From NCBI GenBank assembly GCA_041736875.1, contig JBGSSV010000111.1:31-64030 (forward strand): a stretch of 64,000 nucleotides of DNA. The letters run 5' to 3'. The notes under the pieces are model-generated. The model was given only the letters and a program-made list of their open reading frames with translations. It did no database searches and had not been told where the DNA came from. Origin of the DNA: Chthoniobacterales bacterium. GTDB lineage: Bacteria > Verrucomicrobiota > Verrucomicrobiia > Chthoniobacterales > JACTMZ01. Numbering within the stretch: the stretch's first letter is position 1; the number at the start of each line of letters is the position of its first letter. Shown in pieces: positions 13,135 through 26,857 of the stretch. Position numbers and translations under genes: made by a program.

Positions 13135-13529
13135 AACCTTCCGCCCTGCGTCTACCCGTCCTCGCTCTTGCGGTGGTCGGTCTCGTCCTTGTGCTGGCCG
13201 GTTGCGACACGCCGGCCAAAACCGCACAGACTCTGGCCAATGACATCGTGGCTTACTCCGCCGACCCGCAACCCGAGACGGCGGTGCGGATCGAAGCTGA
13301 TTTCGCCCGCCTCGACGCACAGATCGAAAAGCTGCGCGCCGGGGGCCAGGAGGTGGAAGCTGGCGCATGGCAGCAGGAGCGCGACGCTTTGAAGCTTCGC
13401 TTTGCCGCCGCGCGCATGGCTGGCAACCTGCAGGGGGTGAAGAAGGCGGCGGAGGATCTGGGCAAGTCCTTCCGCCAGGCCGGTGAAGCTTTCGGCGAAG
13501 CCTTCAAGGACAAGCCCCCCGCCGAGTAA
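13131..13529 (+). CDS. lipoprotein (helical, unknown function)
   Basis: GTG at 13131 overlaps the pgi stop (GTGA). [25 protein letters not shown] carries a lipobox. The remainder is Ala/Glu/Lys-rich. Confidence 0.55.
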
Positions 13530-13617
13530 GGCGCGGTCCGGCGCAGGGCCGTTCATTTTCGTCTCCGTATTTGTCGCGGACTGCTTCATGCTCTTGACCC
13601 CCCAGTTTGGGGTTTTC

Positions 13618-14682: not shown

Positions 14683-14699
14683 GGAGCGCTCGCGTCGGG

Positions 14700-15599
14700 A
14701 TGAGAGCAACCCGCGCACTTGCCTGGTTTCTGGCCGGCGTGCTCCTGGCGCTGTGGGTCGGTCAATCCCGGGCGGCAGACCATCAGCACGGTCCCACCGG
14801 CACGTATACCGAATGGCATTGGCCGGAGCCGCCGCCTGACGGGGGCTACGAAGGTTTCGAGCATCGGCTGGTCATTGAGCGTGAGCCGCCGGGGGACGTC
14901 GGATATTTCTGGTCGCATCAAGTCGAATTGCAGGATGGCGACACGGCGTATTTCGGCCTGCAGACCCTCGGGAGACGGCCCGATGGCAGCGAGGGGAAGG
15001 TGGCGATCTTCTCGATTTGGAAAGCTCTCGCTGCCCGCGGCCCCGGCGTCGCCCAGCCGTTCTCCGGGGAAGGGGAGGGATATCAAACCTTGATCCCCTA
15101 CGATTGGAAGCCGGGGCAGGGGTATCGCCTGCGCATGTTTTGGAGCGGGGAGAACCGCCGCGGAACGGAATGGTCGGCCACCGTCTGCGATGAAACCACG
15201 GGCGAAGTCTCGCTCATCGGGACCATCACGGTGCCGAAGAAATGGGGAGGCTTGGGGGCGTGGTCGGTCATGTGGTCCGAGCGCTACACCGGGCCCGAAG
15301 TTCGGACTTGTGATGATGTCGGCTATTCCCGCGTGACCTTCACGGCACCCACGGCGGATGGCGGCAGCGTCAGGCCCGACCGCCACCATAGTTACGTCAC
15401 CGCCCCCGCGAATTGCCCTAGCTCCCGGGTGATCGAGCAGGGCGGCCGCTTCCGTCAGGAGATGGGTATCCCCGAGCAGACGTGCAGAAGGCCGCGGTCG
15501 GCGGTTCAGGGGGTTGGTGTGATCGTGGCAAATGGAGAGCGGCCGAAACCGGACTCATCGGGTTTGGTCGTCGGAATGGTCTGGGTGAACCAAGTGTGA
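14700..15599 (+). CDS. secreted protein, DUF3472-like
   Basis: Signal peptide MRATRALAWFLAGVLLALWVGQSRA. Contains YFGLQTLGRRPDG...VAIFSIWKA...FSGEGEGYQ...YDWKPGQGYRLRMFW. The last ~31 codons overlap the convergent gene, so the true 3' end is questionable. Confidence 0.5.
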   Translation: MRATRALAWFLAGVLLALWVGQSRAADHQHGPTGTYTEWHWPEPPPDGGYEGFEHRLVIEREPPGDVGYFWSHQVELQDGDTAYFGLQTLGRRPDGSEGKVAIFSIWKALAARGPGVAQPFSGEGEGYQTLIPYDWKPGQGYRLRMFWSGENRRGTEWSATVCDETTGEVSLIGTITVPKKWGGLGAWSVMWSERYTGPEVRTCDDVGYSRVTFTAPTADGGSVRPDRHHSYVTAPANCPSSRVIEQGGRFRQEMGIPEQTCRRPRSAVQGVGVIVANGERPKPDSSGLVVGMVWVNQV

Positions 15600-17437
15600 G
15601 CGTAGGAATGGGCGTCCAAGAGACTGCCCCCCGGCGGCGGCGTGATGTATTTGAGATGGATGCCCTCCGGTGGAGATTCCTCAGTCAGTCCAACGACAAA
15701 AGGCGAGGTGATGTAAAAATCCATGCTGCTGCAAGCCTTCGGCACGTCCACGGTCAGTTCCTGATCCGGCGCCGGCGTGTCCAAAATGGTCACGTGCATG
15801 TTGGCCGGCGCCATATTCATCATTTTCAAACGCAACGCCGCACGAGACACCACAAATCCTCCCGCGCTATGTCCGATCAAGTGCAGGGGCTTGGCCGGAT
15901 CGATCTGCTTATCCCAGATCATCTGAGCGATCCGGAAGGCCAAGAGATCCCCGACCTCCCTGGCCTGACTCGGAATGCCCGCCAGATCCGCGAGAAACTT
16001 TCCCACCTCATTCCCCGGATCAATCCCGTGCATCCTTCCGGGCATCGCCGCGGCGGACCAGTCCACCAGGCCGATGTTCGGCGCCGCAGAGCCCAGTCGT
16101 TCCAGCAGAACCTTGCGCATCTCCCGCATCCAGGGACTGTCAAGGCCCTCCCCGGTCTGGATCGCACCGTCATGCAAACCGTGGGCGATGATGATCGTCC
16201 CATTCGGAACGAGGTCCGGGTCTGGTATCCAGGGACCGCCTGTTTCATCCACCAGCGCCCCTTGCGCCTGCAGCTTGCTCCGTGCCTCGGGATCACTCGG
16301 GGCACTGAAAGAAAGCCAACCCAGCGTCCCGGCCGAAGCTGCGATGACAAAAGGCAGGCGCCCCAGCAACACCCGCCCCAAAAAGATCAAACCCACCCCG
16401 CCTAGCGCCAACGCCTCGCTCGTCACATTTGGACCTCCACCCACGGCCCGATGCTTGTGGCTCGCCTTGGCCTTGTCTTCGCGCACCTGATAGAATTGCT
16501 CGGCCGTTTCAGCTTCAAAATACCAGTCCACCACCTCACCCAAGAGTTGGTCCTCCGTCGCAGACACGATCGGCAGCGCTTCCTCGGGCGTCACCTTGGC
16601 CAGCAACTCGCTCCGCGCGTTTTCCAGCATCGAGATCTGCCTCGCGAAGCGCGCCGTGCGTCGGTTGAGCTCCTGCATATAGCGCAGCGATTGAAGCAGC
16701 ACGATGCCCAGCGGCAGCACAACTCCCGCGACACCGAGGAAAGCCTCGATCCGATAATCCCCCAGCATCCGCATCCATTGCGGCGCCCGACTGCTCATGG
16801 TCAGGATCACCCCGGCTGCCCCGAGGGCCAGCATCACATCCATCAGCACCGTGGCCCATTTCGTGAAATGCTTCCGGCTCTCTTCCGCGCTCTGCTTCGC
16901 CTTTCGGTAATAGGCCAACTGATCATCCAACCGATTCTTGATCCAAGTTTCCCTCCACTGCGGCCAGGCTTGTTCGTGGGCTTCATCGTGCGTTTCAATG
17001 ATGGGCTTCAGGTCAGGGATCGCCGCCAACACCCGGCGCGCGGGCAGCACGGGAAAGATCGCCGCCGTCATCTGACTTCGCGCCACCTCGGCGACCAAAC
17101 GCGCCCGTGCCCAGGTCCGCTGCATCCCCCGCCAGCGCATCCACCACAAAGCCCCGATCAAGCACAGCACGGCCGCCAGCGTCCCAAGGGCCGCCGCCGC
17201 AGGCGGCAAGCCCAGAGATCGCCGAATGAGCCAAAGGGTGGGCATCATCACCGCCAGCGCTTGAATCAGAGTCATCCAGCGCGACCATGAGCGCGCCATC
17301 GGTGCCGCCCTGAGGGCCAGCCCATCCATACGTTGCTGGATCACATCAAGGGAATCCCCCGCCGTGACCCCGGCGGCTGATTTCAGATCGGCCAGCCAAC
17401 CTGGCGCCGACGTTTCGGGGGTGGCTTTAGCTTCCAT
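15506..17437 (-). CDS. SLATT-like (DUF4231-type) transmembrane module fused to a lipase-type alpha/beta hydrolase
   Basis: Reads RLDDQLAYYRKAKQSAEESRKHFTKWATVLMDVMLALGAAGVIL...IEAFLGVAGVVLPLGIVLLQSLRYMQELNRRTARFARQISMLE: a helix, two TM helices, then a helix, as in SLATT/DUF4231. The C-terminus reads IIIAHGLHDG...LHLIGHSAGGFV (GxSxG elbow). Confidence 0.6.
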   Translation of the reverse strand: MEAKATPETSAPGWLADLKSAAGVTAGDSLDVIQQRMDGLALRAAPMARSWSRWMTLIQALAVMMPTLWLIRRSLGLPPAAAALGTLAAVLCLIGALWWMRWRGMQRTWARARLVAEVARSQMTAAIFPVLPARRVLAAIPDLKPIIETHDEAHEQAWPQWRETWIKNRLDDQLAYYRKAKQSAEESRKHFTKWATVLMDVMLALGAAGVILTMSSRAPQWMRMLGDYRIEAFLGVAGVVLPLGIVLLQSLRYMQELNRRTARFARQISMLENARSELLAKVTPEEALPIVSATEDQLLGEVVDWYFEAETAEQFYQVREDKAKASHKHRAVGGGPNVTSEALALGGVGLIFLGRVLLGRLPFVIAASAGTLGWLSFSAPSDPEARSKLQAQGALVDETGGPWIPDPDLVPNGTIIIAHGLHDGAIQTGEGLDSPWMREMRKVLLERLGSAAPNIGLVDWSAAAMPGRMHGIDPGNEVGKFLADLAGIPSQAREVGDLLAFRIAQMIWDKQIDPAKPLHLIGHSAGGFVVSRAALRLKMMNMAPANMHVTILDTPAPDQELTVDVPKACSSMDFYITSPFVVGLTEESPPEGIHLKYITPPPGGSLLDAHSYAHTWFTQTIPTTKPDESGFGRSPFATITPTP

Positions 17438-17650: not shown

Positions 17651-17773
17651 CTAGCAGCCCTCCGGCTCGTTGGCGTAGCTTTGCTGATACCCGCCGCCAG
17701 TGGTCTCGCAACCGGTGAGGCAGCAGATGGAAAGGATACCGACAACGACGAGGATGCTTTTGATGATGGTCAT
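17651..17773 (-). CDS. 40-aa micro-lipoprotein
   Basis: MTIIKSILVVVGILSICCLTGC|ETTGGGYQQSYANEPEGC is a signal peptide plus LTGC lipobox. ATG is M82 of ORF 17651..18016. It is short, so it remains hypothetical. Confidence 0.35.
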   Translation of the reverse strand: MTIIKSILVVVGILSICCLTGCETTGGGYQQSYANEPEGC

Positions 17774-17891: not shown

Positions 17892-19577
17892 TCAGGCCAG
17901 GAAGTCGCCCACATGCAGGACCACGGAGCGGTCGTAGTCTTTGGTTGGCTCGTCGAGGAGGTCGTAGGCGACGAGGTTCGGGTGCTGTTTGGCGGCGTCG
18001 TTCCGCTGGGGGGCAAAGGTCCAATCGGTCATCCAATAGTAGGCCGCCCACCGTTTGTGTTCCATGCGCGAGAGACGCTCGACTTGCACGGGGCTGAGGC
18101 TGTCCCACTGGGCCTTCGTGATCGTCCCCGGATCCCACCCGGCGGCGCGAACTTTGAAGGGAATGTGATCCGCTTGGGAGCGGCTGGCCCCTTTTTGCTC
18201 CTCGCTCAAGTCCTCCCACGGGCGGAATGTGGCTTTGCCCTCGAGGTTCCGGGCGAGAGCTTCATTCCCGGCGGCGCGGGCCTCGGCGATTTGCGCATGG
18301 GTCTCGCGGATCCATTTTTCGTGAATCGTTCGCGCCGTCCGGTCGAGCGACTCGCCGATGACCGCTTCGTAGCCGCAGACATCTCCCGGCTGCGGGAGAA
18401 AACCGATGCAGTCCTTGAGCCGGCGATGGCGGGCGACCATCGAGCGAAGCGGTGAGTCGGACGGGGCAGTGATGAGGATCCGCAAGTTTGAGCGATCCGA
18501 TGTCTGCTCGAGGAGTTCTAGCGTGCGGGAGTAACCGCTGTTTCCTTCAGCCAGAGCAGGGAAGATGTTGAAACGGCCCGGGGTGGAAGCCAGAAGATCC
18601 GTCACTTGGCGGGAGAAGTGCTCCTCGTCCACCAGGTCCACCGCGTCGAGGTCCATGCACTGGGTGATGCCGGGGAACTGTCTCATGAGCATGGCCAAAT
18701 CGCGCGAAGCACTGGGGCCGACGAGGTGGAGGTGGACTCGCCGATCATCGGTGAAATGCCCGAGCAAGGCGTATTCAAAAGCCAGGGCCCGCCCGAGACT
18801 GCAGAGACCGGGCAGCACAACATGGACTTCGCCTTCGTCGGACTCGGGGGCAAAGTCGCGGATGGTTTGCCGCGCGATGTTGCGCGCCTCGCTGAAAACC
18901 CTTACCGGGCCTCCGCTGGTCGCCGGGGCGTCCTGCGCCCGGTGCCGCCAATACAAATCGCACAGCGAAGCCCTGTTGCCGTGGGCGTGCACCGAGGGCA
19001 CTCCGAGTTCCACGGCGGCCATGCTGATGATCAAGTTGTGCTCGTCGTCCGAGGTGGTCACAGCCACCTGCGCGGCTTTGGCGGCGCCGGCTTGGGCCAG
19101 CACACTCGCTTTCGTGGCGTCGCCGCAGACGACCAGAAAACCTTCGGCCTCGAGAACTTCGGCCCGGTCGGGGTCGCTTTCGATCAGCACAACCTGCCGC
19201 CCGCGTTCTTCCAAGTCCTTGGCAAGCACGGTTCCCTTGCGGCCAGCCCCGCAGATTACGGTGTGCCCGGTCAGGCGGCGGGCGCGAAAGTGGTTCCACT
19301 GACGTTGGAACAAGGCCACGCCCACGCGGAAAATGGCACCGAGCATGGTGAGCGGGGCCAACCATCTCGCCACCTCCAAGGTCCACGGCAGAGGGGCTTC
19401 AGCCGTGGTATTCCATGGAAAATAGTTCCAATAGAAGAGCTGGACCGCCCGATAGGCTGCGACCGGAAGTCCTCCCGCGTCGTTGAAGGATAAAAAGCCC
19501 CACGTGCCGAGCACGAGGGAGACCACGGCGGAAACGAGGAGGATGGCTCCGAAGTGGCTGCGAATCCTCCACCACAT
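17892..19577 (-). CDS. 2-TM protein with TrkA-N/RCK NAD-binding domain and two C-terminal RyR-type repeats
   Basis: N-terminal helices are present but there is no K+ selectivity filter (AAYRAVQLFYWNY...). The Rossmann region reads VICGAGRKGTVLAKDLEERGRQVVLIESD. RyR-like repeats: IHEKWIRE...FRPWEDLSEEQKGASRSQADHI and MEHKRWAAYYWMTDWTFAPQRNDAAKQHPNLVAYDLLDEPTKDYDRSVV. Confidence 0.65.
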   Translation of the reverse strand: MWWRIRSHFGAILLVSAVVSLVLGTWGFLSFNDAGGLPVAAYRAVQLFYWNYFPWNTTAEAPLPWTLEVARWLAPLTMLGAIFRVGVALFQRQWNHFRARRLTGHTVICGAGRKGTVLAKDLEERGRQVVLIESDPDRAEVLEAEGFLVVCGDATKASVLAQAGAAKAAQVAVTTSDDEHNLIISMAAVELGVPSVHAHGNRASLCDLYWRHRAQDAPATSGGPVRVFSEARNIARQTIRDFAPESDEGEVHVVLPGLCSLGRALAFEYALLGHFTDDRRVHLHLVGPSASRDLAMLMRQFPGITQCMDLDAVDLVDEEHFSRQVTDLLASTPGRFNIFPALAEGNSGYSRTLELLEQTSDRSNLRILITAPSDSPLRSMVARHRRLKDCIGFLPQPGDVCGYEAVIGESLDRTARTIHEKWIRETHAQIAEARAAGNEALARNLEGKATFRPWEDLSEEQKGASRSQADHIPFKVRAAGWDPGTITKAQWDSLSPVQVERLSRMEHKRWAAYYWMTDWTFAPQRNDAAKQHPNLVAYDLLDEPTKDYDRSVVLHVGDFLA

Positions 19578-19582
19578 GCCGG

Positions 19583-22333
19583 TTACTCCGACCTTTTGAA
19601 GAGGTCGGCCGTTTCCGCCGCCTCCTCCGCGACACGTTTGGCGGCCGCGGCAAAGCCGGGGTCAGCCGGATCCACGACGTCCTCCGTCTCATCCTCGGTG
19701 CGGATCCATCCGACCAATTGATCGTTCATGAAATTGAAAATATTCGTCACCTTACCGGTCTTCTTCTCCGTGGCCTGGCCCTCGCGCACCTGGAAAACCG
19801 AACGGAGGCTTCCCTTGGGGGTCCAATAATAAAAGGTGAATGTGCCGTCGGCCTCGCCCGTGGAGTCCACCAGCATGACGCGCATCAGGCTTTTCCCATC
19901 GAACCACCCGAGAGCATAATGTTCGCGGGAGCCGCCGTGTTCGGGAAGCTCCCGCCGGGCCTCCTGCCAGGCGCCGTCATCGGACTTGGCCTTCCAATCC
20001 TCACGCAGCGTCGCAAAGCTCTCCGCTTCCAAAACAACTTCCGCCAGCTTGGGCAGGAGGGCTTCGATGCTCGCGCGTTTGGCATCGTCCTCGGGCATGG
20101 CTTCCGCGGCAATCTCCGCCGCGGTGCGGGCATAAGCCACAGCCTCCGCCGCGCGGTTGTCGGCCCACAGATTGAGGGCTAGGGCTTGGTTGGCCGCCGC
20201 CAGCTCCGCCTTCGCCCCGGGTTGCTCGGTTTCCAGCAGGGTGATGTTCCGGCGCTGGAGCGCCTCGGCCTCCTTTCGGTCATCGAGGGCCCCATAAATG
20301 CCGGCCAGCAGGCCGCGGGCTTCGATCGTTTGAAGGTCACCCGCGCCGAGTTTGGCCTCCCGGATCTTGAGGCAGCGGTCGGCCAGGCCCCGGGCCGTTT
20401 CGTTGTCGTCGGCGAGGAGAAGCCGACTGGCCTCGATGAAGAGATTCACCGCATAGCCGGTATCATCCGCTCCCACCGCCTTCCCCTGTTCTTCCAAACG
20501 TCTAAGCACAAGCTTCTTGGCTCCCTCGGTATCGCCTCTCGCCTCCAGCAGTTCGCCGAGTCTTTCGAAGCTGTCGAGCGTGTCAGGCTGGGCCGCGCCG
20601 ATGGTGCGGATGCGGGTCTCGAGGACTTTCCGGGTGAGGATTTCGGCCTCGTCCAGATTCTCCGGCGACTTACTCCGGGTCAGCAGTCCGGCCAGGATCG
20701 TGGCCTGGGCCAAGGTGGGCGGCGCATCCGGGCCGACCGCGCGCTCCGAGGAGGCGAACGCCCGGCGCGCCAGAGCGATCGCCCCCGGATAGTCGTCCTG
20801 ATCCTCCCGCACGAAGGCCAGCATGATCACCGGATTCAAAGTCTCCTCGTGATCCGGTCCGAGCGATTTTTCGCGGGCGGCCAACACCTTGCGGTAAACT
20901 TCCTCCGCCTGGGGGAATTTTTTCTGGGAGTTGAGCGCATAAGCCAGATCCAGCATGGCGGACAGCGTCTCCGGGGCCTCCGGGCCGGATTTTTTTTCGT
21001 TGGCCTCCACCACGCCGCGGAAAAGTTTGAGCGATTCCTCTTGTTCGGCTTCCTCACCACTTATGAGGCTGCGGGCCAGCGCGAGCGTTGCCTCCAAGGT
21101 GGCCGGATCATCCGGTCCGAGTTCGCTCTCCTGCACTTCGAGGACGGAACGGTTCAGCTCGCGGCCCTCCTCGGGGGGAACAACCTTCGCGAGACTGGTC
21201 ATGAGGGCGAGCGTGGCCGGGTTCTTCGGGCCAAGCGCGGCATTGCCTTTGGCCCAATCCACGGCCTCGGAGAGTATTCTCCTGGGTTCCGTGCTCATCA
21301 CATCGCGGTCATACATGGCCATGGCCAGCGCGTTGGTGGCGGCGGCCCAAGCGGCCGGATCCTCCGTGCGGTCGAGCAGGGTGAGGCGCTCGGCTTGGGC
21401 GGTGATGGCCTCGTTGACCAGACCCGCAGCCAGTTGAGCCTCGGCCAAACGCTGGAGGGCGTCGGCGAGGTTGCGCTTCCCGCCGGCCCCTGTGCTGGCC
21501 CGCGCCGCAGCCACGGCCTGCTCGGCTTGGACGATGGCCTCCCGCACGGTGTTGCGGACTTCTTCGACGGATTGGTTGCTGGCCTGCGCCACATTTTGCT
21601 CCGCCTGCAGGGCGATTTGCTGCATGTCGCCTGCTCCGGCCTTGCGCAAGCGGGCCTGCTCGGCGAGCAGTTGTTCAATCAAGGCTCCCTGACGCGCGAG
21701 TTGATCGTTGGTCGCGGCAATGACCTTGGCTTGCTCGCCCTGGCGGCCGAGCAGGAAAATTCCGCCGCCGATGGCAATAACCGCCGCGGCCACGGCGACG
21801 ATGAGCGTGAGGCGCCGACGCCCGCGTTCCTTGGCCAGTTCCTCGCGCAGGTTCTCGACCGAGAGCTGGAGCTCGCGCGTGCGGGTCGAAAGTTCCTCGG
21901 GTGTGGCAAATTCGTAGAAAAGCTCGTCGCGTTGCAGGAGGCGGGCGCGGTGGTCGAGTTGGAGTTGCTGCTTGTCCTCCGGCTCGGGATCGTGCTTGTC
22001 GAAAGGGAAATCCTTGCCGCAAAGAAAGACATAGCACGGGAGCTTCAACTCCATCGCGATCTCGTATTCCATCTGCGTGAAACTCCGGCGGTCCGGCCCC
22101 GGGATCACCGGCTGAGGCTCGGCCCCGTAATAGAAGCCCGCGAGATGCACGACGGCGTCGCACGTCAGGATTTTCGTCCGCAGCATGTCGCGCACGGATT
22201 TGTAGTCGGGCGGGAAATCGTCCTGCACGATCGGCAGGCACTCCATCCGCCTGAGCCCCTCGGAAACCAGCCCCCGGGCGGTGCGAAGGTCGCGACTCGT
22301 GGCGCTGACGAAAATGCGTGGGACGGGTTGCAT
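19583..22333 (-). CDS. DUF4062 (TIR/N-deoxyribosyltransferase-like) - TM - coiled coil - TPR protein with unknown C-terminal domain
   Basis: Reads MQPVPRIFVSATSRDLRTARGLVSEGLRRMECLPIVQDDF...CDAVVHLAGFYYGAEP...SFTQMEYEIAMELKLPCYVFLC, which matches the DUF4062 pattern. TM helix is LTLIVAVAAAVIAIGGGIFLLG. There are many TPR_12-like units (LGPDHEETL, LGPDDPATL, SGPEAPETL, VGPDAPPTL). ATG 22333; the ORF-track start at 22369 is TTG. Confidence 0.65.
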   Translation of the reverse strand: MQPVPRIFVSATSRDLRTARGLVSEGLRRMECLPIVQDDFPPDYKSVRDMLRTKILTCDAVVHLAGFYYGAEPQPVIPGPDRRSFTQMEYEIAMELKLPCYVFLCGKDFPFDKHDPEPEDKQQLQLDHRARLLQRDELFYEFATPEELSTRTRELQLSVENLREELAKERGRRRLTLIVAVAAAVIAIGGGIFLLGRQGEQAKVIAATNDQLARQGALIEQLLAEQARLRKAGAGDMQQIALQAEQNVAQASNQSVEEVRNTVREAIVQAEQAVAAARASTGAGGKRNLADALQRLAEAQLAAGLVNEAITAQAERLTLLDRTEDPAAWAAATNALAMAMYDRDVMSTEPRRILSEAVDWAKGNAALGPKNPATLALMTSLAKVVPPEEGRELNRSVLEVQESELGPDDPATLEATLALARSLISGEEAEQEESLKLFRGVVEANEKKSGPEAPETLSAMLDLAYALNSQKKFPQAEEVYRKVLAAREKSLGPDHEETLNPVIMLAFVREDQDDYPGAIALARRAFASSERAVGPDAPPTLAQATILAGLLTRSKSPENLDEAEILTRKVLETRIRTIGAAQPDTLDSFERLGELLEARGDTEGAKKLVLRRLEEQGKAVGADDTGYAVNLFIEASRLLLADDNETARGLADRCLKIREAKLGAGDLQTIEARGLLAGIYGALDDRKEAEALQRRNITLLETEQPGAKAELAAANQALALNLWADNRAAEAVAYARTAAEIAAEAMPEDDAKRASIEALLPKLAEVVLEAESFATLREDWKAKSDDGAWQEARRELPEHGGSREHYALGWFDGKSLMRVMLVDSTGEADGTFTFYYWTPKGSLRSVFQVREGQATEKKTGKVTNIFNFMNDQLVGWIRTEDETEDVVDPADPGFAAAAKRVAEEAAETADLFKRSE

Positions 22334-22374
22334 GGGCGGAAATCCTAACGGAGCCCGGCTGGCTGGCAAGCTGG

Positions 22375-23298
22375 TTAGCGGGTCCCTCTGGGTGCCGGGG
22401 ACGGGGCTGGAGCGCTCTCCGGCTTTCCGACCAGCATCCGGCCGACAAACGTCCCGCCGAAGCCCTCCATCTTCGTGCGCACGTCGGTCATGGTCAGGGT
22501 TGTTTCATCGAGCAGGCCGTTAACTTTTTTCAGACTGGTATCGAGTTTGAGATTCACGTTGGTCACGGTTTTGGTCAGCTCGTCGGTGAGACCTTGGAGC
22601 CGGTCCAGGCTGACGTTGAGCGAGGTGAGGGCCTCGTCGATTTTGCCGTCCTCGCCGACTTGGAGTTTCAGGCTGGTGGTCACGCCTTCGACATTTTGCA
22701 GGGAAGCGGCGGCGGATGGAACAGCCTCTGCGAGTTCCTGCATGACCGACTTGGTGCGGCCTTTTTGCGGTTCGGTGAATTGACGGATCGTGGCGTCGAT
22801 CTGGTTTCCGAGCTTCACGTATTGCTCCATGATCGCGTTCATGTCGTTCTTGGGCTGCTCCTTCTGCAGCACGAGGGTGGGGGGCTGGCCGGCCTTGGGC
22901 TTGACCGCGGTGATGGCGTCCGGGGCGGATGAAAGGTCGAGGGTGATCGAACTCGGGGCGAGGGCCGACTGGACCACGCCCGCTTTGACGATTCCGATCG
23001 GGGCGAAGCGCCACTGGGCGAACGTGTCTTTAACGCCGGCGACGAGATGGAACTGCGCCTGGCCATCGGGCCCGAGCGAAGGCGTGACCTTGCGCACATT
23101 TCCGATCACGGCCCCGGCGCAACGGAGCTCCGAGCGGGGACCGAGACCCAGTAGGTCGTTCGAAGTAAAATGAATCTCCGAGGACTGACTCCAGACTCCC
23201 AGGCTGTCTTTGGTGATTTGAATGCCGATCCATGCACCCGCGATGGTCAACACGCAGAGCAGGACGACGATGGTTTGGATTTCGAGTTTCTTTTTCAA
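22375..23298 (-). CDS. mlaD: MlaD/MCE-family periplasmic component
   Basis: N-terminal TM helix IQTIVVLLCVLTIAGAWIGI. MCE-like segment SEIHFTSNDLLGLGPRSELRCAGAVIGNVRKVTPS...AQFHLVAGVKD. Long helical tail. The TTG start overlaps the mlaF stop (TTGA). Confidence 0.7.
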   Translation of the reverse strand: MKKKLEIQTIVVLLCVLTIAGAWIGIQITKDSLGVWSQSSEIHFTSNDLLGLGPRSELRCAGAVIGNVRKVTPSLGPDGQAQFHLVAGVKDTFAQWRFAPIGIVKAGVVQSALAPSSITLDLSSAPDAITAVKPKAGQPPTLVLQKEQPKNDMNAIMEQYVKLGNQIDATIRQFTEPQKGRTKSVMQELAEAVPSAAASLQNVEGVTTSLKLQVGEDGKIDEALTSLNVSLDRLQGLTDELTKTVTNVNLKLDTSLKKVNGLLDETTLTMTDVRTKMEGFGGTFVGRMLVGKPESAPAPSPAPRGTR

Positions 23299-23987
23299 TG
23301 GTTTCGGGTGGTGAAGGCTTGAAGGTGCTCATTTTGGGCCGCGTCCTCGCTGCGCACCAGCGTGTGTTCCGTGCCGTGGAGAAGGAGAATATGCGTGGCG
23401 ATGCGCCGGGCGAAGTCCAGATCCTGCGTGGCCACAACAATCCCGGTCAGGACCCCGGTTCGGACGAGGGTGACCAGAAGTTCCTCCACCAGAGCCTTCT
23501 TCGCGGGCGCCAAGGCGGCCACGGGCTCGTCGGCGATCAGGAGCCGGGTCCGGCCGGAGAGGGCCCGGGCCAGGGAGACGCAACGCTTGTCACCTTCGCT
23601 CAACTGATGGACCTCCTCGTTTTCGAGGTGTCCGCAGCCGACCAAGCGCATGCGCAGCCGGACCTTTTCCTGCAACTCTCCATCCAGGTCCAACCCGTGG
23701 ACGAGGAAAGGCAGGGCGATGTTCTCGAAGACGGTCATGTTGCGGATCAAGCCGGGGTGCTGAAAGACGACGCCCACCTCGGCCAGGGCGAGGTTCAGCT
23801 CGCGTCCGGCCACGTGCACCGAGCCCGGTGGGACCCGCAGGTGTCCGCTCAGGTGCGCGAGCAGGAGACTTTTGCCGGAGCCGTTGTCGCCGAGCACGGC
23901 CAGAATTTCGCCGGGCTGGACTTGAAAGGCCAGAGGCTCCCCGCCGAGGGAGAGACCTTGGACCGAGAGCGGCGGTGCCGTCTTCAT
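23295..23987 (-). CDS. mlaF: ABC transporter ATP-binding protein, MlaF-like with atypical motifs
   Basis: Walker A GDNGSGKS and Walker B LLIADEP are present. The signature is LSEGD (not LSGGQ), the D-loop is AALA, and the H-loop position reads VVATQD (Gln, not His). The ATG overlaps the mlaE stop (ATGA). Confidence 0.8.
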   Translation of the reverse strand: MKTAPPLSVQGLSLGGEPLAFQVQPGEILAVLGDNGSGKSLLLAHLSGHLRVPPGSVHVAGRELNLALAEVGVVFQHPGLIRNMTVFENIALPFLVHGLDLDGELQEKVRLRMRLVGCGHLENEEVHQLSEGDKRCVSLARALSGRTRLLIADEPVAALAPAKKALVEELLVTLVRTGVLTGIVVATQDLDFARRIATHILLLHGTEHTLVRSEDAAQNEHLQAFTTRNH

Positions 23988-24769
23988 TCAAGACTGAAGG
24001 CTGCGGTGAGCAGGCTGAGCAGGAGGTTGACGATCGTGGAGGAAAACACCGCGGTGGCCACCGCTGACGTGGTGATCTTGCCGACAAAGCCGCTCTCCGC
24101 CTTGGCCCCCATGAAGCCGAAAAAACCGGCGATGATCGACATGGCCGTCGCGGTGATGGCCAGTTTGGTCACGGTGAGCAACAAGGCTCCCGAGGTCACG
24201 CTCGAGGCGTAGGCCGAAATGAATTCCGTGAAACTCGTCCCGACCGCGATCCATGAAACCAGCCAAGCCCCGAGGCAGGCGGCATACACGCCGATGACCG
24301 CCAGCGAGGGGGCTGTAATGATGAGCGCGATGGCCCGCGGGGCGAAGATCATGTCCGCCGGATTCAAGCCCACTGCCTCCAGCGCATCGACTTCCTGCGA
24401 CACCCTCATGCTCGCGATGTCCGAGGTCAGCCCGACCACACCCTTCAGGACCACGAGATTGGCGATGGCGAAGGGGATGACAAATTGGATGAAGGCGCCG
24501 CCGAGATGCGGCAGCACCAAAGTTTGAAAGGCCTCCGGGCTGCCGGCATTGCCGATCACGCCATAGGCCGCCGCGAGGCCGTAGATGAAGGTCGTCAGGG
24601 CCGACGCTCCCGCCGTGCCTCCGAGGAAACCCAGCACCTGCCGCACCGTTTCGCGATCCACGACGGTGGTGCGCCCCGTCAGGACCCGCGGAATCACGCG
24701 CAAGCCGACGATCAGGATGGCTCCGAGCAGGCTCGTGATCGAATAGCGGGTTGTCCGCTCAAACGTCAT
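23984..24769 (-). CDS. mlaE: MlaE/YrbE-family ABC permease
   Basis: About 261 aa from ATG 24769 (M90 of ORF 23984..25036; alternative M82 at 24793). Polytopic, with LTSDIASMRVSQEVDALEAVGLNPADMIFAPRAIALII. Confidence 0.75.
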   Translation of the reverse strand: MTFERTTRYSITSLLGAILIVGLRVIPRVLTGRTTVVDRETVRQVLGFLGGTAGASALTTFIYGLAAAYGVIGNAGSPEAFQTLVLPHLGGAFIQFVIPFAIANLVVLKGVVGLTSDIASMRVSQEVDALEAVGLNPADMIFAPRAIALIITAPSLAVIGVYAACLGAWLVSWIAVGTSFTEFISAYASSVTSGALLLTVTKLAITATAMSIIAGFFGFMGAKAESGFVGKITTSAVATAVFSSTIVNLLLSLLTAAFSLE

Positions 24770-24806
24770 TGCTGTTGTCGCTTTGGCAGCCATACATTGG
24801 CGGCAG
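24770..24806. promoter_or_regulatory. very short divergent intergenic region between the mla-led operon and the DUF4071/SLOG operon
   Basis: mlaE ATG is at 24769. Rightward start candidates are TTG 24783, ATG 24807 and ATG 24831. No promoter boxes were recognised. The regulatory role is inferred only from divergent geometry. Confidence 0.3.
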
Positions 24807-26666
24807 ATGACGCACGGAACCGCCGCCACTATGCAAGTCAAATCGGATCGAGCCTGCGACAGCATTGACGCCGTCGCCGTGGCCGTGGACGCCCTGCGGG
24901 GGCGCCTGCAGAGCGGGGAAAAAATACCGCCGCGCGAACTGCGCGGAATCTGGGGTGAGCGCCTCCGCCCGTTCTGGCGGCTGAAGATCGACATGTATCG
25001 CGCCTTGTCCCGCCGGTTGCTCGAGCAAGGCGACAACTACCTGGCGAGCGAAGTAGCCGACGAGGGCGGGCAATTCTTCGGTGACGATGTGGCGTTGATT
25101 TTGACCCGCGCCCTGGCGACGGCGCGGAGCGGGGCGCCGCAGAGTGCACAGGCCTTTCTGCGGCAGAAGGAGGAGTTGCTGGACGAGGCCGACGAGGCCA
25201 AAAGTTTGCTGGCCCGCACCTTCAAGGATCTTTGGAAATCCTCGCGCGAGGAGCATTACCTGCAGGAGTCGTTCGACCTCTATCACCTCGACTACACGAC
25301 GACCAGGGGCGACCGGACCTTTCCGGGTGTGAACGCTGCCAGCATGGCGCTGTTTCTCGGTCGCCGCGACCTTGCCGGGCGCATCGCCGGGGAGGTGCTG
25401 GCCCTCTTGCGCGCCAAAGCCGACACCGCGAACTACTGGGATGAAGTCACCATCGCGGAGTGCCTGCTCGTCGCCGGCGAGATCGAGGCGGCCCGCTCGG
25501 CTTATGCCGGAGCGGCCAGCCGCGATCACGTCGCCCACGCCCACCTCGCGACCACCCGCGGCCAGGCCCGGCTCCTGCTCAGGCAACTTGAACGCGGCGA
25601 ATCCGAGTTCGATCCGTGTTTCCCGCTGCCCGGCGTCATTGCCTTCACGGGACACCGCATCGATGGGCCAGACCGGGCTGCGCCCCGGTTGCCCCACGAT
25701 ATGACCCCGGCCATCAAAGAGCGCATTCGCGAGGCCATCGCGAAATCCGGAGCCGGCTTCGGTTACGCGGCCGCGGCCAATGGCTCGGACATTCTCTTCC
25801 TCGAATGCATGCAGGAGGCCGGCCTCGAGACCTACATCCACCTTCCCCTGCCCGAGGAGGACTTCATCCGTGAGAGCGTTCTGAATCCCGCATTTCCCGA
25901 GTGGTTGGAGCGCTTTCGAAAAGTCACCGCCCACGCCACCGAATACACTTGCGCGACGCACGCCGGCCACGAGGCGCTTGATTTCGACTACGGCAACCGC
26001 CTCATGCTCGGCGCGGCGAGCCAGCGCGCACGCCAACTGGGCTCCGAACTGCATTTTCTCACCGTTTGGGATGGTGTCCCCGCAGCGCTCGGGAGCGGGG
26101 GCACGGCGGATTACGTCCGCGTGGCCCGAGAATTCGGCTGCGCGGTCGAGATCATCGACATCCCCGGGCCGCGGCCCGGGCAGCCGGAGGAGCAAACCGC
26201 GCCCGCGGCGGGCCAGGGCCAACTCCTCTCCATCCTCACGATTTTCCTCCGGCCCGACGAGAAGTCCGAGGCCAGGCTGGCCGACTTGGCCAGTGACGCC
26301 ATTCACAGCGAGGTCTCCGACACCCGTGTGCGCATCTTCTTCCGAAACCAAGCAGCCGCAGCGATGGCTGCTTGCGGGATCCGCCGACATCTGGCCGACG
26401 TCCTCACGGGCGCGTTGGGATTGCACGCCGGACCCGCCCGTCTCTCTACGCACCCCCTGACGGGCAAACAGATCGTGCGCGGCGCCCATGTTACCGTCTC
26501 CGATGAGCTGGCCGCCCTCACTCCTGCCGGTCTCATCTACGCCTCATCCGCCTTCGCCGCGCTGCTCGGTTTGGAGAGTTCCGGCGATGCCCGGAGCGAG
26601 TTCCTTGGTTATCGCGCGTTGACCAGCGGCGGTCGGCGGGAGCCTGTCTTTCAAATCCTCGGCTGA
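24807..26666 (+). CDS. DUF4071 (TRAF-binding-domain-like) - SLOG/YpsA-like Rossmann - degenerate class III cyclase-homology protein
   Basis: DUF4071 pattern: LLARTFKDLWKSS...FPGVNAASMALFLG...NYWDEVTIAECLLVAGEIEAA. SLOG/YpsA-like region: VIAFTGHRIDGP...IKERIREAIAKSGAGFGYAAAANGSDILFLECMQEAGLETYIHLPLP. CHD-like tail: ILTIFLRPDEKSE...RIFFRNQAAAAMA...LGLHAGPARL, which lacks both metal-binding Asp. The start is uncertain (24783, 24807 or 24831). Confidence 0.6.
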   Translation: MTHGTAATMQVKSDRACDSIDAVAVAVDALRGRLQSGEKIPPRELRGIWGERLRPFWRLKIDMYRALSRRLLEQGDNYLASEVADEGGQFFGDDVALILTRALATARSGAPQSAQAFLRQKEELLDEADEAKSLLARTFKDLWKSSREEHYLQESFDLYHLDYTTTRGDRTFPGVNAASMALFLGRRDLAGRIAGEVLALLRAKADTANYWDEVTIAECLLVAGEIEAARSAYAGAASRDHVAHAHLATTRGQARLLLRQLERGESEFDPCFPLPGVIAFTGHRIDGPDRAAPRLPHDMTPAIKERIREAIAKSGAGFGYAAAANGSDILFLECMQEAGLETYIHLPLPEEDFIRESVLNPAFPEWLERFRKVTAHATEYTCATHAGHEALDFDYGNRLMLGAASQRARQLGSELHFLTVWDGVPAALGSGGTADYVRVAREFGCAVEIIDIPGPRPGQPEEQTAPAAGQGQLLSILTIFLRPDEKSEARLADLASDAIHSEVSDTRVRIFFRNQAAAAMAACGIRRHLADVLTGALGLHAGPARLSTHPLTGKQIVRGAHVTVSDELAALTPAGLIYASSAFAALLGLESSGDARSEFLGYRALTSGGRREPVFQILG

Positions 26667-26857
26667 CCGTTTGAGTGTCAGGAGCGGCCGGGGTCGGACG
26701 CTCTTTCCGCCGTGCCCGCCCGAGATCGGTCCGCCAAAAACAGGGGGGCATCGCACCGCGGGCAAGACGCAGAAATCCCCTTTTTGGCTCGTCTCGTCGG
26801 GGTGACTCTGCGCTACTGGCCGCCTTCGGCCTGCCGAATTCCCGGCCAACTCTGTTG

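Follow-up and report, generated by a model that had tools for sequence, protein, structure and literature searches.

A stretch of 64,000 nucleotides from a Chthoniobacterales bacterium (contig JBGSSV010000111.1; the window in what follows) carries three linked genes which we read, at a probability of roughly 0.55, as a module of the Thoeris or abortive-infection type working through an NAD+-derived nucleotide signal. Gene 1 encodes a DUF4062-TPR protein with one membrane helix, gene 2 a channel-like protein with RCK and RyR domains, and gene 3 a protein with SLATT-like and alpha/beta-hydrolase regions. The observations behind this reading are the domain identities, the conserved key residues, the fold similarities and the linkage of the genes across lineages. 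The same gene combination is present in unrelated bacteria, which suggests a system in which the membrane responds to a signal derived from NAD+. No published description of a DUF4062-TPR/RCK-RyR system was found in the literature, in line with the earlier note on this DNA, which knew of none.

The open reading frames were re-read, and the positions given before for genes 1 and 2, as well as their separation by 5 nt ('ccggc'), are correct (Table 1). The earlier note treated these two genes as the whole unit and overlooked gene 3; the functional unit probably comprises three genes. The lipoprotein-like reading frame of 40 aa between genes 2 and 3 is an uncertain member of the unit; its conservation, at 69%, is confined to the close relatives L015 and L022. 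The promoter match lies in the 41-nt gap between an Mla-like operon and gene 1. Other neighbours in the window are genes for PGI, an HD domain protein, a TPR-S protein and a cyclase-kinase. PADLOC gave zero hits, and neither defence genes nor mobile elements could be recognised near the pair in Chthoniobacterales-type loci. The pair is found there in conserved synteny with the Mla-like transporter and TPR-S genes, so that much of the recurrence within the order could be due to vertical inheritance. This setting differs from that of typical defence islands.

Table 1. Positions of the genes and features discussed in the text, numbered along the window
Feature	Position	Strand	Basis or remark
Promoter match, sigma-70-like, TTGCCA-16-TAGGAT	22342..22369	minus	consensus match only
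Gene 1	22333..19583	minus	ORF, ATG 22333, TAA 19585-19583, 916 aa
DUF4062/NIR TIR-like domain, aa 1-155	21869..22333	minus	Pfam PF13271 and AF2 fold
Predicted catalytic Glu E89 of gene 1	codon 22067-22069	minus	alignment to KpSwz E97A
Single TM helix of gene 1, aa 173-198	21740..21817	minus	hydropathy peak 2.77; KERGRRR just before
Coiled coil and TPR array, aa ~199-760	20054..21739	minus	predicted sensor part, predicted extracytoplasmic
C-terminal domain of gene 1, aa ~790-916	19586..19966	minus	conserved among some orthologues
Gene 2	19577..17892	minus	ORF from ATG 19577, 561 aa
Channel-like membrane domain of gene 2	19275..19565	minus	AF2 model, Foldseek, conserved residues
RCK1/KTN Rossmann domain	18894..19262	minus	TrkA_N aa 107-206, E 7e-24
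RCK2-like second Rossmann domain, aa 251-393	18399..18827	minus	AF2, alternating beta-alpha
RyR Repeat12-type domain, aa 397-559	17901..18389	minus	Pfam RyR, two stretches
Lipoprotein-like ORF, 40 aa, MTIIKSILVVVGILSICCLTGC..., between genes 2 and 3	17651..17773	minus	read from sequence
Gene 3	17437..15506	minus	643 aa, translation and TM segments
SLATT-like 2TM region of gene 3, aa 166-305	nt 16523-16942	minus	subthreshold SLATT_1
Alpha/beta-hydrolase domain of gene 3, aa ~405-640, GHSAGG	nt 15518-16225	minus	profile matches

The DUF4062 domain that had been recognised before at the N-terminus of gene 1 was recovered by profile search, PF13271 matching aa 6-93 over its complete length (profile positions 1-82; E 1.7e-12) with 47.8 bits, well over the cutoff of 24.7. 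The sequence also matches the solved DUF4062 structure of KpSwz (10wc, E 2.9e-5). A five-stranded parallel sheet with five helices was taken as the mark of a TIR-like domain, and the AF2 model of the N-terminus (pLDDT 80) has this fold, its strands at 6-10, 33-35, 60-65, 100-105 and 139-142 alternating with helices. Foldseek matches of the model were weak (E 6e-4 to 1e-2) and included RPS4 TIR, SARM1, TIR-STING, SPARTA, nucleoside deoxyribosyltransferase (NDT) and CMP N-glycosidase. DUF4062, also named NIR, is a TIR-like NADase domain which converts NAD+ to ADPR and nicotinamide in the defence systems Swarozyc, Avs2, Vulcan, Vesta and Evangelion, with the catalytic glutamates E97 in KpSwz, E108 in PsAvs2, E98 in Vulcan and E103 in VstA (10.64898/2026.05.01.722283, 10.64898/2026.09.04.749371, 10.64898/2026.06.25.731849). 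This experimentally shown activity of other DUF4062 proteins speaks for the TIR-like output proposed before. The predicted counterpart in gene 1 is E89, as the ungapped register of RRSFTQMEYEIA with KpSwz 'LSFTEK(A97)FDYAV', in which 'SFTQMEYEIA' stands against 'SFTEK(A)FDYA', sets it on the mutated E97A position; the HMMER alignment has a 2-residue gap, and the equivalence is that of the ungapped reading. E89 is invariant in alignment A5 and in nine orthologues.

Across orthologues the DUF4062 domain is 91-100% identical in amino acids. Its third codon positions are 45-63% identical in seven non-close orthologues and in L031, and 84% identical in the ~90%-identical relative L015. Column identity in the TPR part is 42-62%. 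These values point to very strong purifying selection on the NADase domain with divergence of the TPR part, which is what a catalytic module fused with a sensor would be expected to show.

The single membrane helix of gene 1, reported before together with the KERGRRR that precedes it, was found as a hydrophobic helix inside one long predicted helix (aa 155-229, AF2). The TPR array was likewise recovered by HMM, with TPR_12 in four stretches (E 5e-27), TPR_10 also matching, and an FxSxx_TPR region at aa 388-740. The last ~130 aa had zero family matches in the HMM profile searches and, as described earlier, form an unassigned domain. This domain is kept at 37-54% identity in L001, L006, L007, L012 and L016 and is absent from the orthologues of 744-751 aa in L008, L009 and L019. 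Counting K and R in the 15-aa flanks of the helix gives four on the N side and one on the C side, and by the positive-inside rule the DUF4062 domain would be cytoplasmic, as proposed; the periplasmic position of the TPR array stays a prediction. The proposal of a receptor-like, membrane-spanning protein with a cytoplasmic TIR-like output gains from the fact that at three further loci the TIR partners of RCK-RyR have the same layout, in which a NADase domain is followed by one TM helix and then by a large domain resembling a sensor. In the Arcobacter version the TPRs and the NADase lie together on one side of the membrane segment.

Gene 1 shares with the DUF4062/NIR systems the N-terminal domain with its catalytic glutamate, to which a sensor or auxiliary region of variable kind is attached. 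Vulcan, a single protein of NIR and helical repeats, has the make-up of gene 1 minus the TM helix, and the helical stalk that follows the domain in KpSwz is comparable to the long stalk helix of the gene 1 model. In those systems, however, the domain is a terminal NAD+-depleting effector for which no TM segment is mentioned, whereas gene 1 is membrane-anchored, has its repeats beyond the TM helix and shares an operon with an RyR channel-like protein. Neither a TM segment nor RyR or TrkA partners are mentioned in the three preprints cited above. TPR appears in one of the three, only as an abbreviation in Avs/STAND figure legends.

Gene 2 had been described as pore-less, and this description is not supported. 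Its AF2 model (pLDDT 87, pTM 0.80) has the topology of a K+ channel, with TM1 at aa 5-32 (2-30 in the model), a short helix in the pore position (37-46), a conserved aromatic loop (47-64) and TM2 (65-101) before the RCK domain (106-228). Both N-terminal helices seen before are TM helices. Only the filter is replaced: there is no GYG anywhere in the sequence, as had been noted for TVGYG, and a loop FYWNYFPW...LPW (in full FYWNYFPWNTTAEAPLPW) takes its place, with the invariant pattern FYW[NGD]Y[FS]PW across orthologues. Invariant residues of the membrane domain are Y42, R43, F48, W50, Y52, W55, P64 and W65. The best Foldseek match of the model is GsuK (E 7e-8, ~500 columns), and full-length MthK, TrkA and the Repeat12 domain of RyR3 are also matched. 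No Pfam ion-channel family matches gene 2 at E<=0.1, and because of this and of the missing TVGYG gene 2 is not filed as a K+ channel. As the filter is absent and the loop was modelled at a pLDDT of only ~59, ion conduction by gene 2 is to be taken as putative.

The GxGxxG RCK/TrkA-N domain of the earlier description is confirmed by the TrkA_N match. The reading of gene 2 as a nucleotide-binding membrane protein paired with gene 1 is supported. The dinucleotide motif G110-x-G112-x-x-G115 and E133 are conserved, and RCK1 superimposes on the KTN-NAD+ structure 1lss with a TM score of 0.88 and an rmsd of 2.2 A. The middle region, poorly assigned before (aa 251-393), forms a second Rossmann-like domain, RCK-like in the AF2 model. 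GsuK and TrkA, which both have RCK domains in tandem, can be aligned with the model along ~380-500 columns. GsuK and MthK (PDB 4gx0, 4gx1, 4gx2, 4gx5, 6oly) resemble gene 2 in the 2TM pore topology followed by RCK and in the kept GxGxxG, and GsuK also in the RCK tandem; the GsuK structures carry NAD and ADP. They differ from gene 2 in that the latter is without TVGYG, has the aromatic loop and ends in an additional C-terminal RyR domain.

The two RyR repeats proposed for gene 2 passed the profile search, both being matched by Pfam RyR (PF02026, E 1.9e-14), whose cutoff of 27.4 bits is exceeded with 54.1 bits. The matches to DUF4062, TPR and TrkA_N likewise exceed their Pfam cutoffs. Crystal structures of the Repeat12 domain of RyR1 and RyR3 also match in two stretches (E 5e-18 to 1e-11). 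Repeat 2 contains H507, W510, H532 and D549, whose spacing of 3/22/17 equals that of H75/W78/H100/D117 in RyDEP and of H129/W132/H154/D171 in RyR Tad. These four residues are invariant in 23 orthologues (alignment A2), and the motif is also present in proteins of Arcobacter, Priestia, Fulvitalea and Methylobacterium and in distant RCK-RyR proteins. Repeat 1 keeps H419/W422 and H471 at a different spacing. Bacterial RyR-domain proteins had been called functionally uncharacterised; this is outdated, as phage RyR-domain proteins bind or cleave 2'cADPR, 3'cADPR and cADPR, linear ADPR being held in the pocket, and RyDEP is a glycosidase that uses H75 and D117 (PMC13232231; 10.64898/2026.06.04.730250). 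The RyR domain is therefore no less likely than the RCK domain to be the ligand sensor. RyDEP and RyR Tad agree with gene 2 in the Pfam RyR/Repeat12 fold and in the H-x-x-W...H...D residues, but both are viral anti-defence proteins, small and soluble, that act as a glycosidase or as a sponge. The domain of gene 2 is encoded by the host, occurs in tandem and is attached to a 2TM-RCK-RCK scaffold, an arrangement suggestive of a sensor. No fused TIR or DUF4062 domain was present among 57 diverse RyR-domain proteins.

Gene 3 encodes a multi-TM protein in which the GHSAGG nucleophile elbow is invariant. Thioesterase, Abhydrolase_6 and PGAP1 match all seven orthologues, near or below their cutoffs. 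SLATT_1 aligns with gene 3 of the window over profile positions 2-122 of 122, and was found at E<=0.1 in three of the seven orthologues, always below threshold (best E 6e-4). As the score in the window is 16.8 bits against a cutoff of 26.3, membership in the SLATT family is not claimed, only a resemblance. RCK-RyR is directly preceded by an orthologue of gene 3 in L004, L011, L013, L014 and L023, and a further orthologue lies upstream of DUF4062 in L031 (65-76% identity); in L030 and L037 a patatin accompanies RCK-RyR instead. Gene 3 or an analogous lipase thus travels with RCK-RyR.

The pairing of genes 1 and 2, for which the earlier note had asked whether it recurs, was found again in nine other Verrucomicrobial loci. 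Orthologues of gene 1 are directly upstream of RCK-RyR in L001, L006-L009, L015, L016 and L019. The spacing is 2-10 nt where the junction was read directly (L001, L006, L007, L008, L015, L016), and in L009 and L019 gene 1 ends ~10 nt ahead of the RCK-RyR match. RCK-RyR identity in the paired Verrucomicrobial loci is 50-90%. In one MAG, where the genomic surroundings are different, gene 3 comes first, followed by gene 1 and then gene 2. In L010 an RCK-RyR orthologue (48% identical) is followed, 12 nt further on, by a TIR_2-TM-WD40 protein, which by its domains is a like-for-like replacement of the DUF4062 protein. TIR-TM proteins are also the neighbours of more distant RCK-RyR homologues (24-27% identical), once in a Caulobacteraceae MAG (L029) and once in a contig of 72% GC (L037), the latter also having an extra RyR gene. 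Moreover, TrkA_N, RyR and DUF4062-TPR-TM genes follow one another on the Arcobacter plasmid CP146529, surrounded by type I restriction-modification, integrase, recombinase and transposase genes. Within the fetched flanks a NADase-type neighbour was missing in five orthologous loci, and five more have gene 3 only.

Thoeris is one of the closest known designs, with a TIR-type NAD+-processing enzyme tightly linked to a membrane effector. Type X combines TIR with the ion-channel effector ThsK, its signal not being known, and type VII combines TIR with a SLATT effector and canonical cADPR (10.64898/2025.12.03.692087). The SLATT-like protein of the window adds to the likeness; the comparison with ThsK is one of descriptions. 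The differences are that the enzyme of the window belongs to DUF4062, a family separate from TIR, the TIR_2/ThsB_TIR partners being those of L010, L029 and L037, and that the enzymes here are large, TM-containing and receptor-like whereas ThsB is small and cytoplasmic. RyR and TrkA are not mentioned in the Thoeris paper (10.64898/2025.12.03.692087), nor is RyR among the effector sensor domains described there.

What these data let us infer is the topology, which ligand is used, in what order the events take place, that ions are conducted, and whether the module serves immunity or physiological signalling. Gene 1 would be a receptor-like protein of the inner membrane, its NADase in the cytoplasm and its coiled coil and TPR sensor in the periplasm, joined by one long helix. 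A triggered sensor would cause the NADase to oligomerise or to lose autoinhibition, and NAD+ would be cleaved to ADP-ribose, possibly to a cyclic isomer. Gene 2 could read this change by binding ADPR or cADPR in the RyR pocket H507/W510/H532/D549, to which the Rossmann site of RCK1, binding NAD+ or ADP, may contribute, and might respond by opening or remodelling a membrane pore. Gene 3, with its SLATT-like 2TM region and lipase-like alpha/beta hydrolase, would be a second membrane-directed effector.

In animals, RyR is a cation channel regulated by cADPR and TRPM2 one gated by ADPR; we know of no proof that cADPR binds directly to animal RyR. The common points are the product of a TIR-type or other NADase acting on a cation channel and, with RyR, the Repeat12 domain, but there is no relationship between the pore domains (2TM of the RCK type in gene 2, 6TM in RyR) and the resemblance is one of domain and linkage only. 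That the module is a bacterial counterpart of two animal designs, the topology of Toll-like receptors (repeats as a sensor outside the cytoplasm, one TM helix, a TIR-like enzyme inside) and the axis from cADPR or ADPR to RyR, in which a channel is gated directly by the NADase product through Repeat12, is a tentative and rather doubtful idea. If it is true, the RyR Repeat12 domain arose as a ligand sensor of membrane effectors gated by NAD+-derived messengers, and the system senses extracellular events such as phage adsorption or envelope attack, not cytoplasmic phage proteins.

All characterised DUF4062 systems use the domain as an NAD+-depleting effector, so that no ligand-gated effector downstream is required to account for gene 1. 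The NADase could itself be the effector, gene 1 sensing by way of its TPRs and killing through NAD+ depletion as in Swarozyc, Vulcan and Avs2-NIR, and RCK-RyR its regulator or brake, the RyR domain sequestering or hydrolysing ADPR-type products, or the RCK domain reporting the NAD+ level in order to set a threshold, avoid self-intoxication or reset the system. The depletion of NAD+ to ADPR in those systems, for which a second messenger is not reported, agrees with this, and so do Vulcan, which works as a single protein, the conservation in gene 2 of H507 and D549, equivalents of the RyDEP dyad, and the accessory ligand-removing enzymes of Vesta and Metis, which are tightly linked yet dispensable for defence. 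A brake, however, does not need a conserved channel-like 2TM domain or tandem RCK domains, and RCK-RyR is without a NADase neighbour in ~10 orthologous loci and is also found with lipase-type genes alone; we regard this explanation as unlikely. An incidental adjacency, gene 2 being a cation channel or transport regulator under adenine-nucleotide control and gene 1 an independent single-protein NADase system, would fit the flanking synteny shared by most Verrucomicrobiota recurrences and the several gene 2 orthologues that stand alone. It is nevertheless highly improbable, as NADase-type neighbours occur in at least five separate contexts (Verrucomicrobiota with two partner types and a rearranged three-gene order, the Caulobacteraceae MAG, the high-GC contig and the plasmid of Arcobacter, a member of Campylobacterota), the spacers of 2-12 nt are conserved despite protein divergence of up to 50%, and the chance per locus is ~3e-4 by a rough inference, not a computation, from ~0.3 such genes per ~4000-gene genome.

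The module could also serve a housekeeping function, with the mechanism set out above but in envelope or lipid-stress signalling instead of immunity, the TPR sensor in the periplasm reporting the stress and the NAD+/ADPR-sensitive channel-like protein and the membrane lipase tuning ion flux and lipids. The gene order beside MlaE/MlaF/MlaD-like genes is stable in Chthoniobacterales- and Terrimicrobiaceae-type loci, the NADase domain is extremely conserved, unlike fast-evolving defence genes, mobile elements and known defence genes are not found close by in the window, and RCK-RyR is repeatedly near lipid-active enzymes (alpha/beta hydrolase, patatin, a PLD-like protein). Even so we give this explanation little credence. 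The Arcobacter version is on a plasmid amid restriction and mobility genes, and patchy presence together with the exchange of DUF4062 for TIR and of TPR for WD40 among close relatives is typical of conflict systems. Moreover, 20% of DUF4062 genes are near defence genes against 3.9% expected (10.64898/2026.05.01.722283, 10.64898/2026.09.04.749371, 10.64898/2026.06.25.731849). Operons of TIR with SLATT and of TIR with an ion channel, too, are validated Thoeris types (10.64898/2025.12.03.692087), a further point against a housekeeping role.

The two genes of the pair are separated by the 5-nt spacer ccggc, with reading frame bounds as claimed in the earlier note, and every domain named there (DUF4062, TPR, TrkA_N and RyR) was borne out by profile searches. 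In gene 1, which encodes a DUF4062-TM-TPR protein, DUF4062 was found at aa 6-93 (E 1.7e-12, over the Pfam cutoff) together with TPR_12 and TPR_10. In gene 2, encoding a 2TM-RCK-RCK-RyR protein (RCK-RyR), TrkA_N covers aa 107-206 (E 7e-24), and two stretches match RyR (E 1.9e-14). By hydropathy gene 2 has two transmembrane (TM) helices and gene 1 a single one, at aa 173-198 behind KERGRRR. The closest relatives all belong to the Verrucomicrobiota, being metagenome-assembled genomes (MAGs) titled Terrimicrobiaceae, Chthoniobacter or Chthoniobacterales, and Verrucomicrobiaceae.

Coordinates of the genes in the window (nt) and of the segments of the gene 2 product (aa)
Feature	Position	Strand	Remarks
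HD_5 (HD-GYP-type) domain protein	13483-14682	+	just past gene 3, opposite strand
DUF3472 protein	14679-15599	+	just past gene 3, opposite strand
Gene 3	17437..15506	-	643 aa, downstream of gene 2 past a 454-nt gap
40-aa ORF	17651-17773	-	lipoprotein-type signal peptide and lipobox (…ICCLTGC), inside the 454-nt gap
Gene 2	19577 (ATG)..17892	-	561 aa
Gene 1	22333 (ATG)..19585-19583 (TAA)	-	916 aa
MlaE-like permease, ABC ATPase, 307-aa single-TM protein	22375-25036	-	upstream of gene 1, same strand
TPR-S ("Tetratricopeptide Repeats-Sensor") protein	24783-26666	+	conflict-system sensor family; divergent from the Mla-like operon
1481-aa protein	26675-31120	+	guanylate-cyclase and Ser/Thr-kinase domains; next after the TPR-S gene
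Gene 2, TM1	aa 2-30		AF2 model
Gene 2, short helix at K+-channel pore-helix position	aa 37-46		AF2 model
Gene 2, loop	aa 47-64		AF2 model
Gene 2, TM2	aa 65-101		AF2 model
Gene 2, RCK1	aa 106-228		AF2 model
Gene 2, second Rossmann-like domain	aa 251-393		AF2 model
Gene 2, RyR domain	aa 397-559		AF2 model

Loci were fetched through RCK-RyR homologues and then compared with the window genes; the locus search with alignment A2 (the closer set) gave 9 genome and 13 metagenome loci, every one Verrucomicrobial in type. Members of the RCK-RyR orthogroup (46-90% identity) lie in 21 informative loci, and the pair recurs among them. A DUF4062-TM-TPR orthologue lies directly upstream of RCK-RyR in nine (the window, L015, L001, L006, L007, L008, L019, L009 and L016), with spacers of 2-10 nt in the six directly read junctions (L001, L006, L007, L008, L015 and L016). 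As these nine loci have common flanking Mla/TPR-S synteny, they could by themselves reflect vertical inheritance. In the MAG JAEUHM01 gene 3, DUF4062-TPR and RCK-RyR stand in a row across two contig ends (L031 and L012), with different flanking genes and no Mla or TPR-S upstream. At L010 a TIR_2-TM-WD40 protein (TIR_2 E 3.7e-11, ThsB_TIR E 1.7e-6, WD40 propellers and a single TM helix, aa 256-282) is encoded 12 nt downstream of RCK-RyR, a like-for-like swap in which enzyme domain and repeat sensor are both exchanged. Five loci (L004/5, L011, L013, L014 and L023) have only a gene 3 orthologue, 9-15 nt upstream of RCK-RyR, and the other five (L002/3/18, L021, L017, L020 and L024) have no NADase-type neighbour within the fetched flanks.

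Outside this orthogroup, a divergent TIR_2 gene adjoins a 790-aa RCK-RyR in a Caulobacteraceae MAG (L029), a TIR_2 protein and a patatin face an RyR gene and an RCK-RyR gene on a 72%-GC contig (L037), and a patatin lies beside a distant RCK-RyR at L030. On the Arcobacter plasmid CP146529 three consecutive genes encode TrkA_N (324 aa), RyR (166 aa, bearing the H/W/H/D motif discussed below) and DUF4062-TPR-TM (728 aa) proteins, flanked by type I restriction enzyme, integrase, recombinase and transposase genes. The TM-anchored enzyme partners (gene 1, L010, L029 and L037) have a common layout in 4/4 cases, namely an N-terminal NADase-type domain, an Arg/Lys-rich stretch, a single TM helix at about aa 170-280 and a large C-terminal domain. 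Lys plus Arg counts on the N and C sides of the helix are 4/1, 4/3, 2/0 and 5/3, respectively, the N side being richer in all. When the RyR region was compared by phmmer with a representative library, 3,898 matches (about 3,900 sequence clusters) were obtained, and in most of the top-ranking ones the domain is fused to RCK. A Pfam scan of 57 atypical-length proteins among them revealed no TIR-RyR or DUF4062-RyR fusion and thus no Rosetta-stone support, and a search with the RyR-domain profile (alignment A4) returned ten tiny proteins only.

DUF4062, renamed NIR, has been shown in three 2026 preprints (10.64898/2026.05.01.722283, 10.64898/2026.09.04.749371, 10.64898/2026.06.25.731849) to be a TIR-like NADase acting in anti-phage defence as part of Swarozyc, Avs2-NIR, Vulcan (NIR and HEAT repeats in a single protein), Vesta and Evangelion, with an activity that hinges on a single glutamate (KpSwz E97, PsAvs2 E108, Vulcan E98, VstA E103). 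The gene 1 N-terminus matches the solved DUF4062 structure of the Swarozyc protein KpSwz (PDB 10wc and related entries) with E 2.9e-5. The ungapped pairing "SFTQMEYEIA" / "SFTEK-A-FDYA" places E89, which is invariant in relatives, where the deposited protein carries its E97A mutation, a register that is our own reading, HMMER's printed alignment carrying a 2-residue gap there. The AF2 model of aa 1-230 (pLDDT 80) has five parallel strands alternating with five helices, followed by a long helix (aa 155-229) with the TM segment within it. Its Foldseek neighbours, from a library older than the KpSwz entries, include TIR domains, nucleoside deoxyribosyltransferase and CMP N-glycosidase with weak E-values, and the search was noisy, with GTPase and flavodoxin-like folds among these matches, probably due to the long stalk helix.

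Nine orthologues share 91-100% identity over the first 160 aa of gene 1, with third codon positions of the NADase domain only 45-63% identical in L031 and the seven non-close orthologues (84% in L015, a relative of about 90% identity). Recent transfer as the cause of this conservation was considered and rejected on account of these third positions. The coiled-coil/TPR part is 42-62% identical and RCK-RyR 50-62%. This pattern amounts to strong purifying selection of the enzyme module and to relaxed or diversifying evolution of the presumed sensor. A protein-collection search with the first 231 aa returned just six short or partial proteins and no full-length orthologues.

The AF2 model of gene 2 (27-sequence alignment, pLDDT 87, pTM 0.80) finds its best PDB match in the multi-ligand channel GsuK (E 7e-8, about 500 aligned columns), the matched structures including "bound to NAD" and "bound to ADP" entries. 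It also matches TrkA (tandem RCK domains), MthK (full-length channel) and human RyR3 (Repeat12 domain). The description of this protein as pore-less does not hold against the K+-channel-like helix-loop topology of the model and its GsuK and MthK matches, although the TVGYG filter is indeed absent, ALYRSVQLFYWNYFPW standing at the pore-helix/filter position with an invariant aromatic motif in its place. On the model, the protein is channel-like with putative conduction. Because of the replaced filter it was not filed as a K+ channel, and a filing of gene 2 as a plain Kch/TrkA-type K+ protein, the label given to a homologue by one source, was rejected on the same ground.

RCK1 keeps G110-x-G112-x-x-G115 and E133. 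Bacterial RyR-domain proteins had been regarded as functionally uncharacterised, a statement overtaken by two 2026 preprints (PMC13232231; 10.64898/2026.06.04.730250) on phage RyR Repeat12 (Pfam PF02026) proteins, which bind 2'cADPR, 3'cADPR and cADPR; one of them, RyDEP, turns the cyclic forms into ADPR by cleavage. Their ligand is held by His-x-x-Trp, a His at +22 and an Asp at +17 further (RyDEP H75/W78/H100/D117; RyR Tad H129/W132/H154/D171). Gene 2 has H507, W510, H532 and D549 with exactly this 3/22/17 spacing, all invariant in 23 orthologues.

The pair had been put forward as a two-gene unit, but the unit probably comprises three genes: gene 3, which had been left out, recurrently adjoins RCK-RyR. 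Its product contains GHSAGG, which is invariant, as well as four hydrophobic segments, and alpha/beta-hydrolase profiles match its orthologues weakly (7/7). SLATT_1 matches are below threshold in 3/7 (best E 6e-4), the one in the window spanning the full profile length. Gene 3 is 65-76% identical across loci whose RCK-RyR is merely 47-48% identical, and it stays adjacent to RCK-RyR yet switches side between loci, which speaks for a functional link. Among the effectors established or predicted for TIR-signalling systems are SLATT proteins and phospholipases: type VII Thoeris joins a TIR to a SLATT protein and works through cADPR, and some of the effectors predicted for Thoeris are phospholipases (10.64898/2025.12.03.692087).

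The most economical explanation, proposed from sequence, models and gene linkage, is that genes 1-3 form a Thoeris-like module. A membrane receptor-like NADase (gene 1) would make ADPR or a cyclic isomer, or lower NAD+, and the channel-like RCK-RCK-RyR protein would sense this change via its Repeat12 pocket, possibly also via RCK1. The output would be at the membrane, with the SLATT-like lipase (gene 3) as co-effector. Coincidental adjacency of genes 1 and 2 is unlikely given the cross-phylum recurrences and the partner swaps. We think it improbable that the NADase is the sole effector, with gene 2 removing its ligand or acting as a brake. Envelope or ion physiology, and not immunity, could also be what this chemistry serves; stable chromosomal synteny next to Mla genes and a lack of defence genes nearby speak for such a use, which we regard as less likely.

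The earlier note knew of no description of the pairing, and this agrees with our searches. RyR, TrkA and transmembrane segments are nowhere mentioned in the three DUF4062 preprints, nor are RyR, TrkA and DUF4062 in the systematic Thoeris survey (10.64898/2025.12.03.692087); the RyR preprints are about phage proteins and leave host TrkA_N-RyR proteins aside, and searches of the available literature for the DUF4062/RCK-RyR combination gave no further description. PADLOC (2023) and NCBIfam gave zero system-level matches for genes 1-3 or the Arcobacter genes. The nearest named system is Thoeris type X (TIR and the ion-channel effector ThsK, signal unknown), compared with gene 2 by its description; a plasmid search with the type X TIR sequence from the survey's supplement returned type II (TIR+Macro) operons only. 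We rate the system as an undescribed variant among the NAD+-derived nucleotide conflict or signalling systems.

If the Thoeris-like reading is true, bacterial RyR-domain proteins would gain a host-side function, the domain having been characterised hitherto in phage anti-defence proteins only, and a membrane-spanning receptor-like class, implying sensing across the membrane, would join the TIR/NIR NADase systems. Phage RyR-domain sponges and glycosidases would be predicted to have been captured from, or to compete with, host RyR-domain effectors. Whether Repeat12 couples ADPR/cADPR binding to opening is unsettled for animal ryanodine receptors, and the two or three genes would offer a simple bacterial test of such coupling to channel opening.

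Other RyR-domain genes were also observed. A 952-aa P-loop/AAA-like and RyR protein is encoded directly after a distant RCK-RyR gene (L028:9926-12784, +). Methylobacterium plasmid pA has, close to a SIR2-family gene of very large size, a gene for a similar protein of 910 aa, MoxR-like+RyR (L035:3565-6297). On a Priestia aryabhattai plasmid (L036:1590-9799) an operon starts with a "Pycsar system effector family protein", includes an adenylate/guanylate-cyclase gene and closes with a 94-aa RyR gene, with a 743-aa TIR-domain gene 1.3 kb off on the other strand; here too a host RyR gene stands in a nucleotide-signalling defence context. P0037 (686 aa; L039:3242-5302, +) has no Pfam match but shows similarity to the C-terminal quarter of gene 2 (E 4e-12) and contains H-x-x-W motifs; its gene is flanked by those for Abi_2 and HD_4. 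P0032, a predicted 309-aa protein on a 1088-nt ENA contig, has TPR_12-type repeats joined straight to an RyR part 67% identical to an RCK-RyR orthologue, the 2TM and RCK regions being skipped; either a natural TPR-RyR fusion or an artefact of assembly or deletion may lie behind it, and it was given no weight.

The small unassigned C-terminal domain of gene 1 is missing in three orthologues (L008, L009 and L019), and a second copy (40% identity) in another gene just past the TPR-S gene (L016:2178-2549, -) marks it as a mobile module. A 571-aa PLD-like gene (PLDc_2 x2) is convergent with RCK-RyR at L024 (8519-10234, -), about 130 nt away, and also occurs at L017 and L020, all loci without a NADase partner. 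It adds a further lipid-active enzyme kind to the alpha/beta hydrolase and patatin (twice) adjoining RCK-RyR and could be a cardiolipin-synthase-type housekeeping gene.

Other loci showed no link between the module and the HD_5 and DUF3472 genes. The 40-aa lipoprotein-like ORF is 69% conserved, in the closest relatives L015 and L022 only. The Mla-like synteny beside gene 1 is kept in Chthoniobacterales-type loci, the 307-aa protein having only a weak MlaD match (E 0.047); the gap between this operon and gene 1 is 41 nt with a promoter-like match inside, and co-transcription with gene 1 is possible. The TPR-S gene is also near RCK-RyR where the DUF4062 gene is absent (L017, L020 and L024), and for this reason might share the functional neighbourhood of RCK-RyR.
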